From an uncultured virus (IMG/VR IMGVR_UViG_3300042294_004663) (taxonomy: Duplodnaviria; Heunggongvirae; Uroviricota; Caudoviricetes), in IMG/VR virus record IMGVR_UViG_3300042294_004663: a stretch of 20,000 bases of DNA, one strand, 5' to 3'. Below, piece after piece: positions 2,478 to 19,224 of the stretch. A model generated the notes under the pieces. That model had not been told where the DNA came from, ran no database searches, and saw only the letters and a program-made list of their open reading frames with translations. Made by a program: the position numbers and the translations under genes. Each line of letters begins with the position of its first letter. The first letter of the stretch is position 1.

Positions 2478-4079
2478 TTATAAAAGCCAAGAAATATCTT
2501 CTTTGCCATTTGAGTAAGGGTTGTCAATTTGGTATGGGTTATTGTTATACTTATCAGCATAACTTGGACCATTGGAATAACCTCCAGCATATGTTGTACG
2601 AGAATTTCCTATCCCATTTAACATACTTTTAGTCATTTCCATATTACTTGTTCTTAATTTAAATGCGGTTTCACGTAAATAACACCCAATACAAAACGCC
2701 ATAATTAAATCATCATTGTATCCTGATTGGGCTTCTGCTCTTCCGTTTCTCCATATAAATACTTTCATTTCTTCTAATAAGCGAGCAGAATAAAAAACAA
2801 CTCCTTTATCCATAACAGCTTCTTGAAATTTACCAATTGATATTGGACGAGTTGTATTTGACATTGTAAAGCCCGGAGTCATTTTACTATGATCCATATA
2901 AGGATCAAAGAAAGAATCTACATTATTTGATCCACCTTTTGGTGAGTAATAGAAATTTTGATAACCTCTATCTAAAATGGTCTGTACAGTTGACCAGCCT
3001 ACACTTTGATTTTCGACAGCTAATAGTGCATTATTATATTCCGTTGCAATGCTAACTAATAGATGACCATAATCCTTAGTATTGATTTGTCCCTTATATT
3101 CACCTACCTGAGTGAATGATTCAACATCAAAGATGTGGAATCCCGAATAATCCTTGCCATCGCCACGTGCTACATCAGCTACGATCAGATAACTCCTTGA
3201 ATAATCCGCTGGTTCCCAAATCCATAGGTTTTGATCTACACCACGTTTTTCTAGAGGTTCTTTTACGTGAAATTGTTCGTAAAAGGTAATATCTTCTGGT
3301 AAAAATACTGTATCACCAGATGTTGTAAAGTCACAGTCACATTCTTGGGCTGCCATTCGAACACCCAAATCTTTATCTTGTTGATCTCTCCAAGATTGAT
3401 CTCGTTCAGGGTGTACTTCCCAAGGTAATCTAATAGGTAAGAAACTATTATCACCCATTTCAGCGGAAACCCATGTTTGATGAAACCAATTACCGGTACC
3501 ATAAGGTGTAGATAATGCAATACATCCACCACCAGTAGCTAAGGTTTGTTGAGCTGATGCCCATATCTCACCAATGTTATGAATGAATGCTGCCTCATCT
3601 ATAATTAACAATGAAACGGCTTCTGATCGACCTGCATCACTTGAAGCGCCTACTGCTTTAATTTGAGATCCATTTGGTAATCGGAGAGTTAATTTATTCG
3701 CCTCATCAGGTTTATTTGCAAATTTAAGCCAAGATGGTAAATTTTCATACATGAACTTTACCTTAGTAACCATGTTTTTAGCTGTTTCTTGCTTAGTTGC
3801 AATACAAAGAATGTTTTTGTCCTCATGAAATATCATCATCCATAATGAATAACCTGCGGCTAATGTTGATATACCTAACTGGCGAGATTTAAGTACTATT
3901 GAATATGGGTTCTCTTGGAATAGAGTAAGTACTTTTTCTTGGAATGGGTAAAGATTAAAAGGCATTCGTCCACGCTTTGGATGCTGGATCTGGCAGTATT
4001 TTTTCATAAAATATGCCGGTGATTGGGCACACTTTATATACTCCTCGCGGACAACTTGTTTTAAACTTTTTTCTTCCAT
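2478..4079 (-). CDS. terL: Terminase large subunit, T4 gp17-like
   Basis: LYPFQ adenine-binding motif, KSRQLGIST Walker A variant, LLIIDEAAF Walker B, STPYG coupling motif, RNase H-like nuclease motifs ADVARGDGKDYS and DDLIMA. Confidence 0.95.
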   Translation of the reverse strand: MEEKSLKQVVREEYIKCAQSPAYFMKKYCQIQHPKRGRMPFNLYPFQEKVLTLFQENPYSIVLKSRQLGISTLAAGYSLWMMIFHEDKNILCIATKQETAKNMVTKVKFMYENLPSWLKFANKPDEANKLTLRLPNGSQIKAVGASSDAGRSEAVSLLIIDEAAFIHNIGEIWASAQQTLATGGGCIALSTPYGTGNWFHQTWVSAEMGDNSFLPIRLPWEVHPERDQSWRDQQDKDLGVRMAAQECDCDFTTSGDTVFLPEDITFYEQFHVKEPLEKRGVDQNLWIWEPADYSRSYLIVADVARGDGKDYSGFHIFDVESFTQVGEYKGQINTKDYGHLLVSIATEYNNALLAVENQSVGWSTVQTILDRGYQNFYYSPKGGSNNVDSFFDPYMDHSKMTPGFTMSNTTRPISIGKFQEAVMDKGVVFYSARLLEEMKVFIWRNGRAEAQSGYNDDLIMAFCIGCYLRETAFKLRTSNMEMTKSMLNGIGNSRTTYAGGYSNGPSYADKYNNNPYQIDNPYSNGKEDISWLL

Positions 4080-4507
4080 TACTTAATTACCGTCAATGTA
4101 AGAATAACAAGTACGGAAGCCACGAACCCTCCACCTAACCATTTAATTCCTCGTTTTAAATTATTATTTTTACGAGTAAGGTCAGTTACGTCTTTTTCAA
4201 GTCCTTTAATTACTTCATCTTGTACAGCCATAACTTTTTCATATGTGGCTGTTTGTTCAATGTAATTTTTTTCTTTGGAAATATAAATATTGATTATGCT
4301 ATCTTTGACGTCAATTTTTTCATTTAATTGCCATACCATTTTATTAATCACTTTTAACTCAGCAATAGCAGAATCACCTCGAGTAAGGTCGATTGCAATT
4401 GAGCGTGCTTTATCGTGTGAAAAACAAATTTTATCGGTAACGGTCTGAGAAAAACTGCTCGAGCTCAGTATTAGAAGCACTAGTAAGATCTTTAATTTTG
4501 TTGCCAT
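4079..4507 (-). CDS. Secreted coiled-coil protein with C-terminal membrane anchor; putative spanin component
   Basis: Signal peptide MATKLKILLVLLILSSSSFS/Q, heptad-like central region, hydrophobic C-terminus WLGGGFVASVLVILTLTVIK; overlaps the upstream gene by 77 bp. Confidence 0.5.
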   Translation of the reverse strand: MATKLKILLVLLILSSSSFSQTVTDKICFSHDKARSIAIDLTRGDSAIAELKVINKMVWQLNEKIDVKDSIINIYISKEKNYIEQTATYEKVMAVQDEVIKGLEKDVTDLTRKNNNLKRGIKWLGGGFVASVLVILTLTVIK

Positions 4508-4790
4508 AATAGGTGCGTGTTGTTTGTAGCTCTTTTTCTGTATGTTTAATTTCTATATTTAACGAATCAACAATATGTTCTTGTTGGTGGAGATTATTAG
4601 TTAAAATTTTTTGACCTTCTTTTAATAAAAATATATTGTTTTTTAATCGTTCAATTTCTTGTTTTTGTTTATCATATTTATTTGTTTGTGTAGGTGTTGG
4701 TTTACACTTAACTAAAAATATAAGTAACAACAAAATTATCCCACCTACAATAAGATGGGATAATTTCAATTTAAATGTTCTATTTTTCAT
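4431..4790 (-). CDS. N-terminally anchored coiled-coil protein; putative spanin component (Rz-like or lipoprotein)
   Basis: Basic N-terminus, hydrophobic LIVGGIILLLLIFLV, Cys29, then coiled-coil-like QKQEIERLKNNI...VDSLNIEIK. Confidence 0.5.
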   Translation of the reverse strand: MKNRTFKLKLSHLIVGGIILLLLIFLVKCKPTPTQTNKYDKQKQEIERLKNNIFLLKEGQKILTNNLHQQEHIVDSLNIEIKHTEKELQTTRTYYGNKIKDLTSASNTELEQFFSDRYR

Positions 4791-6626: not shown

Positions 6627-7925
6627 TTATAATAAATATTCAGCAACATAAATTGCTTGTGCTCCTGATACTGTAATACCACGTGCTGATAAAGCATCAC
6701 CTACAAAGTGTACATTTGGATAATCTACTAATGCTAAATTTTTATAGTCTACTTTTACCTCAGGTGACAAATATTTTACTTCAGGAATGTACATTCCCCA
6801 ATCGTCTCCAAGTGTAGGGAATACTTTTTTCATATCCATAATAAAATCCATAACATATTTGAAATAACCACCCATTGCAGGTTCTACAACATGAGTAAGT
6901 GTATCTAAACTAATTTGAGTTGAGGTTACATTATTACCTTCAGATGTAGTTGATGGAGTACGAGATGGGCTATAATATAAACCAGTTTCGTTTGATTGTA
7001 ATTTATTTACTACTTCACGTGACCAAGTAAATGGATCTTCAATACCATTGATTTCCATCAAGATACCAAAGTTAGTCATATTGTTTCTATACGCTTCATC
7101 TTTCTTAGCGTGACCATTGTAACTATGGTCGCCATATGTTTCTTCCACAGCAACATAAGCAGCGTTATTATTTGTACAGAATGAACGTAATGAAACTCCT
7201 TCATCATCAAATTTTCTATATAATTTAAAGTCATATGAAATATCGATTAGTTTTTGGAAGTGTTCTTGTGGTGCTTCAAATCGAACACCAATTTGTACTG
7301 ATTTAGGTTCGTCTGGGAGTTTATATTCGTTTGCTAATTTTTGTGCAAAGTCAATACCTGATTTACCTACAGCAAAAATAAGTTCATCATAATCAAATGT
7401 TGGAATTGTTTGATGAGTAAAAATACATTGAAATTCAAAATCAATACTTGTAACTTTAGTTTCCCATTCAAAATTTACACCCTTCTCTACTAAATAATCG
7501 TACCAATTTTTAGCAATTTCAGATAAATAATCTGTTCCAACGTGCCATACTGGGAATAATCGTAAGCCGAAATATGGTTTAATAAATTCAGGTTCTTCAA
7601 CAGGATTTGAACATTGCACTTCTTCAGGTTTAGGGTGAAAACGTTTGAAATTGGTAATCACTTGATCCATCAATTCCATTGCTTTATCCTCACCTGTATA
7701 TTTTGATAATTGACCCCCAATTGCTGTATGATAAGTTAATTTACCATCAGACCAACCTCCAGCACCAAGAAAACCTGTCATTACTTCCTCAGGTAAACGT
7801 TTGTATGGATCTTTACCCATATCAATAATTGTGATTAATTCTCCAGGATATCCATTATCAACAAGCTTTGTTGCTGCGTTTACACCTGCTACTCCTGCTC
7901 CTACTATTACAATTCTTTTATCCAT
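6627..7925 (-). CDS. FAD-dependent oxidoreductase (COG2509-like uncharacterised dehydrogenase)
   Basis: Rossmann IVIVGAGVAG, GFLGAGGWSDGKL, GVRFE, RSFCTN and C-terminal HFVGD...RGI FAD-binding motifs. Confidence 0.85.
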   Translation of the reverse strand: MDKRIVIVGAGVAGVNAATKLVDNGYPGELITIIDMGKDPYKRLPEEVMTGFLGAGGWSDGKLTYHTAIGGQLSKYTGEDKAMELMDQVITNFKRFHPKPEEVQCSNPVEEPEFIKPYFGLRLFPVWHVGTDYLSEIAKNWYDYLVEKGVNFEWETKVTSIDFEFQCIFTHQTIPTFDYDELIFAVGKSGIDFAQKLANEYKLPDEPKSVQIGVRFEAPQEHFQKLIDISYDFKLYRKFDDEGVSLRSFCTNNNAAYVAVEETYGDHSYNGHAKKDEAYRNNMTNFGILMEINGIEDPFTWSREVVNKLQSNETGLYYSPSRTPSTTSEGNNVTSTQISLDTLTHVVEPAMGGYFKYVMDFIMDMKKVFPTLGDDWGMYIPEVKYLSPEVKVDYKNLALVDYPNVHFVGDALSARGITVSGAQAIYVAEYLL

Positions 7926-8383
7926 TCTGGTTTATTATTTAATTTTTTCCAATCTAATTTTTTTATTTTAACTTTATCATTAATATAAAAATTCTTATAA
8001 GCATCTATAGTATCTTCTAATTTGAATTCGTCTGGCATACACTGAGGAGGGTTAACAAATCCGGTATCAGGGATATTAGGCTCGTTATATTGTAACCATT
8101 CAAGTACATCTTTTGTTTTATGTTTTTTACCATATCGTTTTTCAAATTCATCACATATCTCTAAACCATGTTGAATTAACCATCTATAATGTTGTATAGA
8201 TTCTCTTACCCATTTAGATGAAGGATGGTTAGTATGAGATTGTTTGTACGGTGCCGTTGAACCATTCACCCAATGAGCCGTACTACACATTTGTGCACTT
8301 TCGATTTGCATTTTTCTAATATGATCATCTGCTAATTCACGTGCAGCAATGATCGGATTTTCATTAATGTAAAATATATTCAT
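7907..8383 (-). CDS. Pyrimidine dimer DNA glycosylase / endonuclease V-like protein
   Basis: MNIFY...DDHIRKMQIESAQM, HTNHPSSKWVRES..HYRWL, PPQCMPD, AYKNFY match the phage/bacterial DenV-like family. Confidence 0.8.
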   Translation of the reverse strand: MNIFYINENPIIAARELADDHIRKMQIESAQMCSTAHWVNGSTAPYKQSHTNHPSSKWVRESIQHYRWLIQHGLEICDEFEKRYGKKHKTKDVLEWLQYNEPNIPDTGFVNPPQCMPDEFKLEDTIDAYKNFYINDKVKIKKLDWKKLNNKPEWIKEL

Positions 8384-8398
8384 AACTCTTATTTTACT

Positions 8399-8430
8399 TA
8401 AATATACAAAAAAAGGTGACCCAATCCAAA
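8399..8430 (-). promoter_or_regulatory. Bacteroidota-type sigmaA-like promoter (TTTG-N20-TATATTTA)
   Basis: TTTG at 8430-8427 and TATATTTA at 8406-8399 with a 20-nt spacer; matches the TTTG-N19-21-TAnnTTTG consensus except the last base. Confidence 0.6.
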
Positions 8431-8441
8431 GATTGGGCCAC
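8408..8441 (-). terminator. Intrinsic (Rho-independent) terminator
   Basis: Minus strand GTGGCCCAATC-TTTG-GATTGGGTCAC (11-bp stem, one G-U pair) followed by C and T7. Confidence 0.8.
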
Positions 8442-8482
8442 AGCTCCTAAATTTTTTTAAATCGACAGGCTATGAATCTGTC
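8439..8482 (-). ncRNA. Candidate structured cis-regulatory RNA (H-type pseudoknot)
   Basis: P1 GACAG/CTGTC, loop ATTCATAGC, 19-nt A-rich linker, P2 CATAGC/GCTGTG overlapping the terminator 5' arm. No Rfam family recognised. Confidence 0.35.
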
Positions 8483-8488
8483 TATATA

Positions 8489-8845
8489 TTATAGTTTTTT
8501 AACTGATTTAACTCCTGTTACTGTGTATCCAAGATCAAGGAATTCTCCAGTTTCTGGATGGGTGTTAAATATGTCAGTTAAATAGTTTTGGATGGATTTA
8601 TTTCCCTCATATTTGTCAAGATCATCTTGGGTAATAGAGATGGTTGTTTCATCTATTTCTTTTTCCCCATACATATTTCGAGCACGATATTCAACTTCAT
8701 ATGCTGCCCCCAATTCAAGGTCTTCTAAATATGAAGGTTGATTTTGTCTATCTTGAATAGCCTTTTCATAACTCCATGATGATTCTTCACTTAAAGCATG
8801 TTTAAGTTCCTCTTTTACTAATTCTTTTAAGCCTTCTAGCTTCAT
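8489..8845 (-). CDS. Hypothetical protein with LKELVKEE leader
   Basis: 118 aa; ATGA overlap with the upstream gene. Confidence 0.7.
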   Translation of the reverse strand: MKLEGLKELVKEELKHALSEESSWSYEKAIQDRQNQPSYLEDLELGAAYEVEYRARNMYGEKEIDETTISITQDDLDKYEGNKSIQNYLTDIFNTHPETGEFLDLGYTVTGVKSVKKL

Positions 8846-9102
8846 GATTTATATATTTTTAATTTTAAAGTACCAGTTCCTTTAATAACTCTATGCCATT
8901 CGTGTCTTGGTATAAATATACGTTCTTTTAGGGAGGTAGGCAAGTTATTGTCTAATTGCAGTTGCCAATCTGTATCTTCTAAAATTTCAACTGTTCTATC
9001 TTCATCATCACGGTGCCATAGTAGTTCAATTGGGTCTATATTTTCGTTGAATTCACGAATAATATATTTATCAGTAACTTCTATATCAGTGTATGGGGTC
9101 AT
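8842..9102 (-). CDS. Small cupin-fold protein
   Basis: WHRDDEDR...WQLQ...IFIPRHEWHRVIKG cupin-like His motifs. Start reassigned to ATG 9102 (MTPYTD), which forms an ATGA overlap with the upstream stop. Confidence 0.65.
   Translation of the reverse strand: MTPYTDIEVTDKYIIREFNENIDPIELLWHRDDEDRTVEILEDTDWQLQLDNNLPTSLKERIFIPRHEWHRVIKGTGTLKLKIYKS
8913..8944 (-). promoter_or_regulatory. Gene-internal Bacteroidota-type promoter (CTTG-N20-TATATTTA)
   Basis: CTTG at 8944-8941, TATATTTA at 8920-8913; same geometry as 8399-8430 and 13055-13086; 67 nt upstream of ATG 8845. Confidence 0.45.
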
Positions 9103-9536
9103 TCTCCTTTGCGTTCTTGCCACTCGTAAGATATACTATCTTTTTCAATAGGACCACCTTTAGCCCAAGTTCTACAAGTACGTGCTGAGTGGCATTTGAA
9201 ACTATGCATCCAACAATATCCTAATCTGCCATCATCATCTGATAATGGGCCAGGCATACAATCTTCCATTCTTGGAGAAATATCAAATGCGGCACAATTA
9301 CCACATAAAGATTGTTGAGCAGCTTCAACTGTTGTGTCCCAATGTTCTGCTAATTCATCCCAATAATCTCCAGGTTCATCAACATTTAAAGGGCCATATT
9401 TAATATAATCAGCTTTAATAGACGAATCTCTATTCTGAGTGTTAAGTTCTAAATCTTGAGTAGGTAAAGGGCAAGCTATTGCTGCTTCATATAATTTACC
9501 TTCAGCTAAATATTTTTTTAGATCAAATATATCCAT
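9099..9536 (-). CDS. Cys-rich hypothetical protein, putative metal/Fe-S binding, with MDIFDLKKYLAE leader
   Basis: 145 aa with 7 Cys, including CGNC, GYC, FKC and RTC. Confidence 0.7.
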   Translation of the reverse strand: MDIFDLKKYLAEGKLYEAAIACPLPTQDLELNTQNRDSSIKADYIKYGPLNVDEPGDYWDELAEHWDTTVEAAQQSLCGNCAAFDISPRMEDCMPGPLSDDDGRLGYCWMHSFKCHSARTCRTWAKGGPIEKDSISYEWQERKGE

Positions 9537-18763: not shown

Positions 18764-18784
18764 TGATATCTTTTTTAGATATCA
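18764..18784. promoter_or_regulatory. Inverted repeat TGATATCT-N5-AGATATCA within a probable primase promoter
   Basis: Perfect 8-bp arms at 18764-18771 and 18777-18784. The minus strand reads TTTG-N19-TATCTTAA just upstream of ATG 18751. Confidence 0.4.
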
Positions 18785-19224
18785 AAATCTTTTCTAAAAA
18801 ACTTACCTAAAATATTATCGTTAAAATATAAATTAGGTTCTTCTAAAACCCTATAAACAAATAAAACTTGCGTTTCATAATATGTTAAAAGTTTTTTAGT
18901 TGGAGCTAATATAAGGATTTCACGTTTAAAATTTTCTATTGGTTCAGTTTTTTTAAGCTCAAGTAATGTTTTATTTGAACCCCAATATTTTTTCCAGTCT
19001 GATTCAGTAATTACCATTTTATAGGAGGCTCTACGGCCAGCTACACCTTCATACATTTCAAGTTCCTTTTTAGTTAACTTTACTTTTTTATTATGATAAA
19101 GTACTTTTTTACCAATATAAGATTTACCTGAAGGTGTATGGGTTATTTTATAAATAAAACCAAAAGTGTTATTTGGGAATTGAGAAAATTCCTTAATTTC
19201 CTCTTTTTTATATATCCAATTCAT
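18775..19224 (-). CDS. GIY-YIG-like endonuclease
   Basis: GFIYKIT...SYIGKK, YWGS, FKREIL, YYE and FNDNI motifs; stand-alone catalytic-type domain. Confidence 0.7.
   Translation of the reverse strand: MNWIYKKEEIKEFSQFPNNTFGFIYKITHTPSGKSYIGKKVLYHNKKVKLTKKELEMYEGVAGRRASYKMVITESDWKKYWGSNKTLLELKKTEPIENFKREILILAPTKKLLTYYETQVLFVYRVLEEPNLYFNDNILGKFFRKDFDI

Follow-up and report, generated by a model that had tools for sequence, protein, structure and literature searches.

A conserved pseudoknot that shares bases with a predicted terminator precedes a glycosylase-like and a flavoenzyme gene in aquatic T4-like phages

What occupies the largest intergenic gap in a 20,000-nucleotide stretch of DNA from an uncultured virus (IMG/VR record IMGVR_UViG_3300042294_004663), and could it regulate the genes that follow it? 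This whole stretch, hereafter the window, is on sequence grounds part of a T4-like phage, and its ORFs include a gp20-type portal, a large terminase, a DnaG-type primase, a segE-like GIY-YIG endonuclease and an SbcD-like exonuclease. All sizeable ORFs run along the minus strand, which is also the strand on which the features below are read. The gap (8384..8488, 105 nt) is the largest between consecutive minus-strand ORFs, the runner-up measuring 54 nt, as had been pointed out in a first-pass annotation made from the letters alone. Its folding energy of -27 kcal/mol (z = -3.59) was equalled by none of 200 shuffles. DNA near-identical to the window is present in lake and freshwater metagenome runs, and a blastn search of deposited phages with positions 7800-9200 gave no match. 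Elsewhere in the window, the segE-like endonuclease gene (18775-19224; PF19835, E 2.2e-27) is located directly 3' of the primase gene, the ORFs 4431-4790 and 4079-4507 overlap by 77 nt, and the terminator scan returned a 16-bp hairpin (4731-4768) inside the 5' end of ORF 4431-4790.

On its 5' side the gap is bordered by an ORF of 118 aa without a family (8489..8845), whose position is not conserved among relatives. The next ORF upstream, of 93 aa and also without a family (8842-9123), has a C-terminus (..HRVIKGTGTLKLKI..) that is strongly conserved in DNA, especially over 8848-8900, and the HRVIKGTGTLKLKI motif also forms the end of the ORF just 5' of the element in several relatives (e.g., L010, L033, and L068). 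Contigs from four RNA-library runs pile up on 8410-8490, with a summed depth of ~1000 in one run and ~300 in another, and the coverage is just as high on the conserved coding stretch 8850-8900. The pile-up is cross-mapping of conserved sequence, and no measure of transcription, transcript ends or read-through.

Two genes follow the gap. The first (7907..8383; ATG at 8383-8381, AAGAG at 8390-8386) encodes a 158-aa protein, referred to here as the glycosylase, that matches Pfam PF03013 (Pyr_excise) over residues 1-90 (E 9.8e-07) and phrog_624 with an E-value of 9.1e-52. The second (6627..7925), which overlaps the first by 19 nt, encodes a 432-aa FAD-dependent dehydrogenase, a flavoprotein with two dinucleotide-binding domains (Pyr_redox_2) that presumably belongs to COG2509, as named in the first-pass annotation. 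PDB sequence searches with the 158-aa and 432-aa proteins gave no match. The predicted model of the 432-aa protein (pLDDT 86) has as its nearest solved fold 3nlc, the uncharacterised protein VP0956 (E 2.9e-18, TMq 0.66), which was also the first match of a profile built from 41 relatives. The JGI name for these relatives, of which there are at least 8000 in metagenomes, is 'uncharacterized FAD-dependent dehydrogenase'. Among deposited phages the relatives of this protein are only ~25% identical, and are found in Campylobacter T4-like phages, where they are annotated as 'putative NAD(FAD)-utilizing dehydrogenase', and in unannotated gut phage contigs (H7-H30).

The element within the gap extends over 8482..8408 and consists of two helices, P1 and P2, an A-rich linker, a hairpin and a run of seven T residues, exactly as the first-pass annotation had described. 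Read on the minus strand, GACAG (8482-8478), ATT (8477-8475), CATAGC (8474-8469) and CTGTC follow each other, so that the two outer segments form a P1 hairpin (8464..8482; 3' strand 8468-8464) with the 9-nt loop AUUCAUAGC (8477-8469). After the 19-nt linker GATTTAAAAAAATTTAGGA (8445..8463) come GCTGTG (8444-8439), then GCCCAATC-TTTG-GATTGGGTCAC up to 8416, a C (8415) and the T7 run (8408..8414), which would supply the U-tract of a terminator. The hairpin GTGGCCCAATC-TTTG-GATTGGGTCAC (8416..8441), with 11 pairs, of which 6 are G-C, and a loop of 4 nt, was the top match of a consensus terminator scan of the window. With its G+C-rich stem and a U-tract directly after it, it is predicted to be an intrinsic terminator.

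The proposal of the first-pass annotation was that the P1 loop pairs with the sequence in front of the terminator to form an H-type pseudoknot, with a P2 of 6 bp, an L1 of 3 nt, and three nucleotides shared with the terminator stem. The pseudoknot proved to be conserved and both its helices covary, but the details had to be adjusted: judged from the relatives, P2 comprises 7 bp (U8475-C8469 with G8444-G8438), L1 is only 2 nt long, and there is no L2. Thus, the 5' strand of P2 is UCAUAGC (8469..8475), inside the P1 loop and preceded by L1, the dinucleotide AU (8477-8476; A and U each in 59/59). The 3' strand is GCUGUGG (8438..8444), and its last four nucleotides, G8441-G8438 rather than the three first noted, at the same time form the base of the terminator stem. 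That this pseudoknot goes beyond a chance pairing follows from covariation and not from the single sequence.

A number of unpaired bases around the junction hardly vary. The 5' flank UAUAUA (8483..8488) is conserved at its columns 3 (U, 57/59), 4 (A, 50/59), and 6, the A directly before P1 (59/59); the L3 linker starts with a G after P1 (G8463, 58/59) and ends in GGA, whose A before the 3' strand of P2 (A8445) is again invariant (59/59). The basal two P1 pairs are conserved as well. Such invariant unpaired bases would fit a binding pocket or a tertiary core. The middle of L3 is A/U-rich and variable, and its length varies by ~15-30 nt across relatives. Part of the family, e.g., L047, L054, L010, and L025, carries an optional 3-bp hairpin in the linker directly after the conserved CG, with compensating changes (CUC-GAAA-GAG, CCC-UUUU-GGG, CCU-AAUU-AGG).

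Relatives were collected with the 158-aa downstream protein as query, which gave 277 IMG/VR relatives, and the best 80 loci of these 277 were used. In most of them the 160 nt upstream contained the same element, with compensating changes visible. A covariance model was built from 23 examples with a 6-bp P1, using P1 and the hairpin as structure and leaving the pseudoknot out. This model matches the window once (8404..8488, 76.4 bits), followed by the palindromic terminator on the opposite strand at 28.4 bits. Across the window and the best 80 loci there were 76 model matches, comprising the copy in the window, 66 loci with a real element, seven of which carry two copies, and 2 weak matches to a terminator only (L011 and L013). 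Altogether, contigs of uncultured T4-like phages contain the element in 135 or more distinct forms.

In the 62 distinct aligned rows, 95.7% of the cells in P1, P2 and the inner hairpin taken together are paired, compared to 80.7% after shuffling, a value reached in 0 of 500 shuffles, and controls with slid partners gave 28-39%. P1 is paired in 99.4% of cells, with 4 of its 6 pairs changed on both sides, and P2 in 97.9%, with 3 of 7 pairs changed on both sides. The changing P2 pairs are CG in 53 and UA in 7 rows, AU in 47 and UA in 14, and GC in 37, GU in 13, AU in 8 and UA in 1. The inner terminator hairpin shows covariation at all 7 inner pairs. In four rows the first or the second pair of P2 is mismatched (C.U or A.C), which counts against a switch. 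Because P2 contains conserved G.U pairs, the structure is that of the sense-strand RNA. The covariation in homologous upstream regions that the first-pass annotation had asked for is therefore found in P1 as well as in P2, and the element has the covariation-supported structured domain that riboswitch aptamers generally have.

The seed examples had been chosen by a filter that requires pairing, and therefore a selection-free test was run. Viral contigs were scanned with the invariant letters fixed and with two loop positions and their two partners set to N, which returned at least 120 matches. Among the matches listed, 115 were distinct and 84 of these had a P1 measuring 5 bp or more. Both free P2 pairs were complementary in all 84 P1-bearing matches listed, in six combinations (AG/CT 70, TG/TA 4, AA/TT 3, AT/AT 3, AG/TT 2, and TA/TA 2), compared to 1 of the 31 listed chance matches that lack P1. 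A second alignment, made from the first 100 selection-free loci, had P1 paired in 100% of cells with 4 of 6 pairs changed, and P2 in 97.2%, the unpaired P2 cells coming from four rows that were mis-aligned by the model.

The first-pass annotation had further suggested that the pseudoknot and the terminator partly compete, and the competing pairing is conserved as well. In the alignment, the alternative pairs formed by the shared bases are kept at 73-110 (GC 46, GU 10), 72-111 (GC 39, GU 11, AU 5), and 70-113 (GC 41, GU 16), while the alternative pair 71-112 is formed in 27 of 61 rows. Where a G-to-A change covaries with the P1 loop, a U is found opposite on the terminator side, and the three CAUAUC/GAUGUG variants have CAUC or CGUC in the terminator arm versus CAGC in the common form. 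When the terminator was folded for the 135 distinct elements, it took up 1 of the seven P2 bases in 16 elements, 2 in 20, 3 in 9, 4 in 53, 5 in 10, 6 in 5, and 7 in 22; hence 4-7 P2 bases are common to both folds in 90/135. The fold gives only 1-2 shared bases in 36/135, some of these low values being undercounts that arise from the cut-off at the T-run, and in these 36 elements the competition between P2 and the terminator may be weak. The T-rich run begins 0-1 nt 3' of the hairpin in 111 of the 135. A few loci (L094, L115, L140, and L142) have both P1 and P2 strands without a clear hairpin plus T-run (GGGAGCUGUGGCCCCACAAC..UUCCC..), and this sub-group may use another kind of expression platform. 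In the window, the calculated energy of P2 is -7.4 kcal/mol, and that of the terminator is -17.7, or -9.4 without the 4 shared pairs. Two mutually exclusive helices, both under selection, with one strand of the aptamer common to the terminator, is the anatomy of a riboswitch expression platform.

Which genes follow the element depends little on what lies before it. In the glycosylase-anchored set of 74 elements, the next ORF is glycosylase-like in 52, the FAD dehydrogenase in 16, another gene in 4, and out of reach in 2, which links 68/74 to a target gene. In a gene-agnostic scan, 79 of the 80 loci listed had a downstream ORF, which was the FAD dehydrogenase in 64, glycosylase-like in 7, and another gene in 8, the latter including one true Pyr_excise gene and one GIY-YIG endonuclease. 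The upstream ORFs among the loci are unrelated, so the association with the glycosylase and FAD-oxidoreductase genes that had been surmised from the window holds whatever lies upstream, and such a consistent association with downstream genes is found in riboswitches in general. If the two genes lie next to each other, which is the case in the window, a single element precedes the pair, and when they are parted by an ORF each has its own copy. Some FAD-dehydrogenase genes have no element within 170 nt, e.g., in L456-L458, where another gene is interposed, which speaks against a switch. The genes upstream of the FAD gene in L456-L458 are homing-endonuclease-like, judged by eye only, and in L139 a GIY-YIG gene (1589-2113, Pfam) lies between the element and the FAD dehydrogenase.

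T4-like phage contigs from lakes and the sea carry the element widely, each of two scans returning at least 120 matches. Cellular genome contigs searched with a loose pattern yielded, for 80 loci among the matches listed, 2 with four P1-like pairs, neither of which had a terminator. The window contains one copy, and four phage records of 131-183 kb contain 1-2 copies, all at this locus; the model found no copy in a 4.3-kb phage fragment.

Besides the RNA fold, the gap contains a promoter-like signal that was absent from the first-pass annotation and that complicates a simple picture in which the leader controls the gene. In the window, TTTG in the hairpin loop (8430-8427) is followed after 20 nt by TATATTTA (8406-8399), a bipartite signal spanning 8399..8430. 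A TTTG-N19-20-TAnnTT signal is present 3' of the P2 strand in 103/129 distinct elements versus 192/5000 background windows, and its spacing is 20 in 86. In 53 elements the TTTG is part of the hairpin loop, and in 50 it follows the hairpin. The signal thus keeps its own spacing while shifting relative to the RNA fold, which favours a promoter that acts at the level of DNA, and argues for such a role of TTTG-N20-TAnnTT as a putative promoter. A sigma70-style reading would be TTGnnn-17-TATATT, with TTGGAT at 8429-8424 in the window, and another possible reading is a resemblance to the Bacteroidota -33/-7 type. The two downstream genes may therefore also be transcribed from their own promoter, independently of a switch, and a switch would then set only the transcription that is added from upstream, for instance after shut-off of an early promoter. 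The A/U-rich L3 could likewise be a DNA-level UP element instead of an RNA feature.

A terminator with a promoter-like signal at fixed spacing brings to mind the promoter-early stem-loop (PeSL) cassettes of T4-type phages, which are described in the available text of Arbiol et al. 2010 (PMC2839356) as a terminator with an overlapping or following sigma70-like promoter and the start of the next gene. The element shares with them, at the level of sequence, the intergenic stem-loop terminator, the sigma70-like promoter signal and the setting in a T4-type phage, and the duplication of the leader when the two genes are separated is also cassette-like behaviour. The element might accordingly be a PeSL-type cassette only, in which a terminator and an early promoter insulate and drive the gene, and in which the upstream hairpin is an accessory without switching, for example for 3'-end stability. 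However, in the same text PeSLs are many per genome, flank variable ORFans in hyperplastic regions, and have no pseudoknot described (PMC2839356), whereas the element occurs in 1-2 copies per genome before the same two specific genes and has a covarying pseudoknot. Moreover, P2 covaries with both the loop and the terminator arm, which a passive stability hairpin does not need, and the link is with the downstream gene and not with the upstream one. We therefore consider this explanation very unlikely. A generic multi-copy terminator, or a PeSL, as the whole explanation was rejected because of the presence of only 1-2 copies per genome.

The position of the element relative to the upstream gene deserves attention, since the stop codon of the upstream ORF in the window (TAA, 8491-8489) is located only 6 nt 5' of P1. 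In the distinct elements the distance between stop codon and P1 is most often 6 nt (45/114) and is 5-10 nt in 70/114, with a range of 1-45 nt, and 16/130 elements have no upstream ORF within reach. A ribosome at this stop codon would cover the 5' half of P1, so that the same switch could be set by the ribosome that terminates on the upstream ORF, or else by a phage or host protein, making it a translation-coupled attenuator or a protein-dependent antiterminator. For a protein, the conserved single-stranded bases suit a binding site as well as they suit a ligand pocket. T4-type phages use RNA-binding regulators, and the leader of T4 gene 32 contains an H-type pseudoknot followed by an A/U-rich stretch to which gp32 binds, which controls translation, and has no terminator. 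This leader pseudoknot is mentioned in the main text of Fremin et al. 2023 (PMC10690425), and gp32 binding to it offers a precedent for a protein effector. The element resembles this leader in its H-type pseudoknot with an A/U-rich stretch behind it and in belonging to a T4-type phage; it differs in preceding other genes and in having bases in common with a terminator. What makes a ribosome or a protein an unlikely effector is the wide range of stop-to-P1 distances and the 16 elements that lack an upstream ORF within reach, the small and compact conserved core, like that of small-molecule pseudoknot aptamers, and the difference in upstream genes, with no candidate RNA-binding gene accompanying the element.

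The same 6-nt mode in the distance between stop codon and pseudoknot would suit a recoding signal that stimulates read-through or frameshifting of the upstream ORF. This option was set aside because the upstream ORFs are unrelated, which leaves no conserved extension, and because the spacing is not tight. A self-cleaving RNA was considered as well. In pistol ribozymes P1, a pseudoknot strand and a hairpin follow in this order, the linker that leaves P1 pairs as helix P2 with the tail that leaves the P3 hairpin, and the cleavage site is opposite the pseudoknot strand. The order of P1, pseudoknot strand and hairpin in the element resembles this layout, but a helix between linker and tail of the pistol type is unsupported (duplex energy -3.25 for native versus -3.14 ± 0.12 for swapped tails), there is no conserved unpaired junction 3' of the hairpin, and no Rfam ribozyme model matched. 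A recoding signal or a pistol-like ribozyme is, in our judgement, hardly credible as an explanation.

The element is absent from Rfam. A search of the 20-kb window with Rfam 15 gave no matches at the gathering score, and at E≤10 the region 8300-8600 gave five matches of 16-19 bits compared to cut-offs of 41-94. Among 20 relatives there were three matches with E-values of 0.44-0.54, far below the cut-offs. No covariance-model match was found to any family, including preQ1-I/II/III, SAM-II, SAM-V, SAM/SAH, fluoride, ZTP, guanidine-III, NAD+-II, and pistol, which bears out the first-pass remark that the element does not belong to the preQ1, SAM-II or SAM/SAH classes. Full-text searches of the literature found no paper describing the element. 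In PMC10690425 (Fremin et al. 2023) the words 'oxidoreductase', 'glycosylase' and 'riboswitch' are absent from the main text, and six of the supplement files contain no Pyr_redox, Pyr_excise or oxidoreductase; the element could be listed in three further files, which lay outside the search. Taken together, the data support an undescribed cis-regulatory RNA composed of a pseudoknot and a terminator.

With regard to known riboswitches, two comparisons are informative. The preQ1-I and SAM-II riboswitches are H-type pseudoknots of ~45-60 nt with a short L1, an A-rich L3 and a P1 of 5-6 bp, and preQ1-I is defined by a P2 of 3-4 bp, an L2 with the C that reads the ligand, and queuosine/preQ1 genes downstream. 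The element shares this classical H-type architecture, including the short L1 and the A-rich L3. However, its P2 of 7 bp abuts P1 and there is no L2, so that the preQ1-reading loop base has no counterpart, and in contrast to both classes its L3 is long, variable and sometimes provided with a hairpin, there is no model match, and no queuosine or methionine genes are found near it. As to the arrangement with the terminator, the ZTP (pfl) riboswitch is an ON switch in which the 3' strand of the pseudoknot overlaps the terminator. In the fluoride riboswitch too, the 3' strand of the pseudoknot overlaps the 5' arm of the terminator, and a stabilised pseudoknot leads to read-through, according to PMC11077080. 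The element resembles the fluoride (crcB) and ZTP (pfl) riboswitches in that its pseudoknot 3' strand overlaps the 5' arm of a predicted intrinsic terminator. It differs from them in having no sequence or model match and other gene sets, in being restricted to phages so far, and in the promoter-like signal inside or after the terminator.

We propose that the element is a new riboswitch-like, cis-acting antiterminator switch on the sense (minus) strand, with a small molecule as the most likely effector, and we would give this reading a probability of roughly 0.7. In this model, P1 (5-6 bp) would present a 9-nt loop, seven bases of which would pair with the sequence that precedes, and in part forms, the terminator, resulting in a compact H-type pseudoknot with AU as L1, no L2 and a long A/U-rich L3. 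Since the 3' strand of P2 is the bottom of the terminator stem, the two folds would exclude each other. When the pseudoknot is formed, the terminator would lack the pairs next to its U-tract and RNA polymerase would read into both genes, and when the pseudoknot is lost the full hairpin would form and transcription coming from upstream would stop. Termination would thus be the regulated step, and read-through the state favoured by the effector. The invariant unpaired bases at the P1/P2 junction suggest that an effector stabilises the pseudoknot, and a small molecule in this role would make the element an ON riboswitch comparable to the fluoride and ZTP riboswitches.

A more specific version, which we put forward tentatively and at somewhat less than even odds, is that the element represents a new phage-specific riboswitch class, in which an H-type aptamer of ~45 nt senses a small metabolite and turns on read-through into the genes for the VP0956-like flavoenzyme and the Pyr_excise-like glycosylase of aquatic T4-like phages. 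The metabolite would perhaps be a nucleobase that carries damage or a modification, or else a compound related to flavins. Testing these ideas would cost little, given the small aptamer and a pair of folds that compensatory mutations separate cleanly.

Only a few of the riboswitch-like RNAs known so far are those of phages and not of their hosts. The element described here guards a family of uncharacterised flavoenzymes with at least 8000 relatives in metagenomes, and its embedded promoter-like signal would make it a compact case in which ~100 nt combine a terminator with a promoter and a conditional antiterminator. If a ligand were found, it would provide a first handle on the biology of both regulated genes, and on what their enzymes do.
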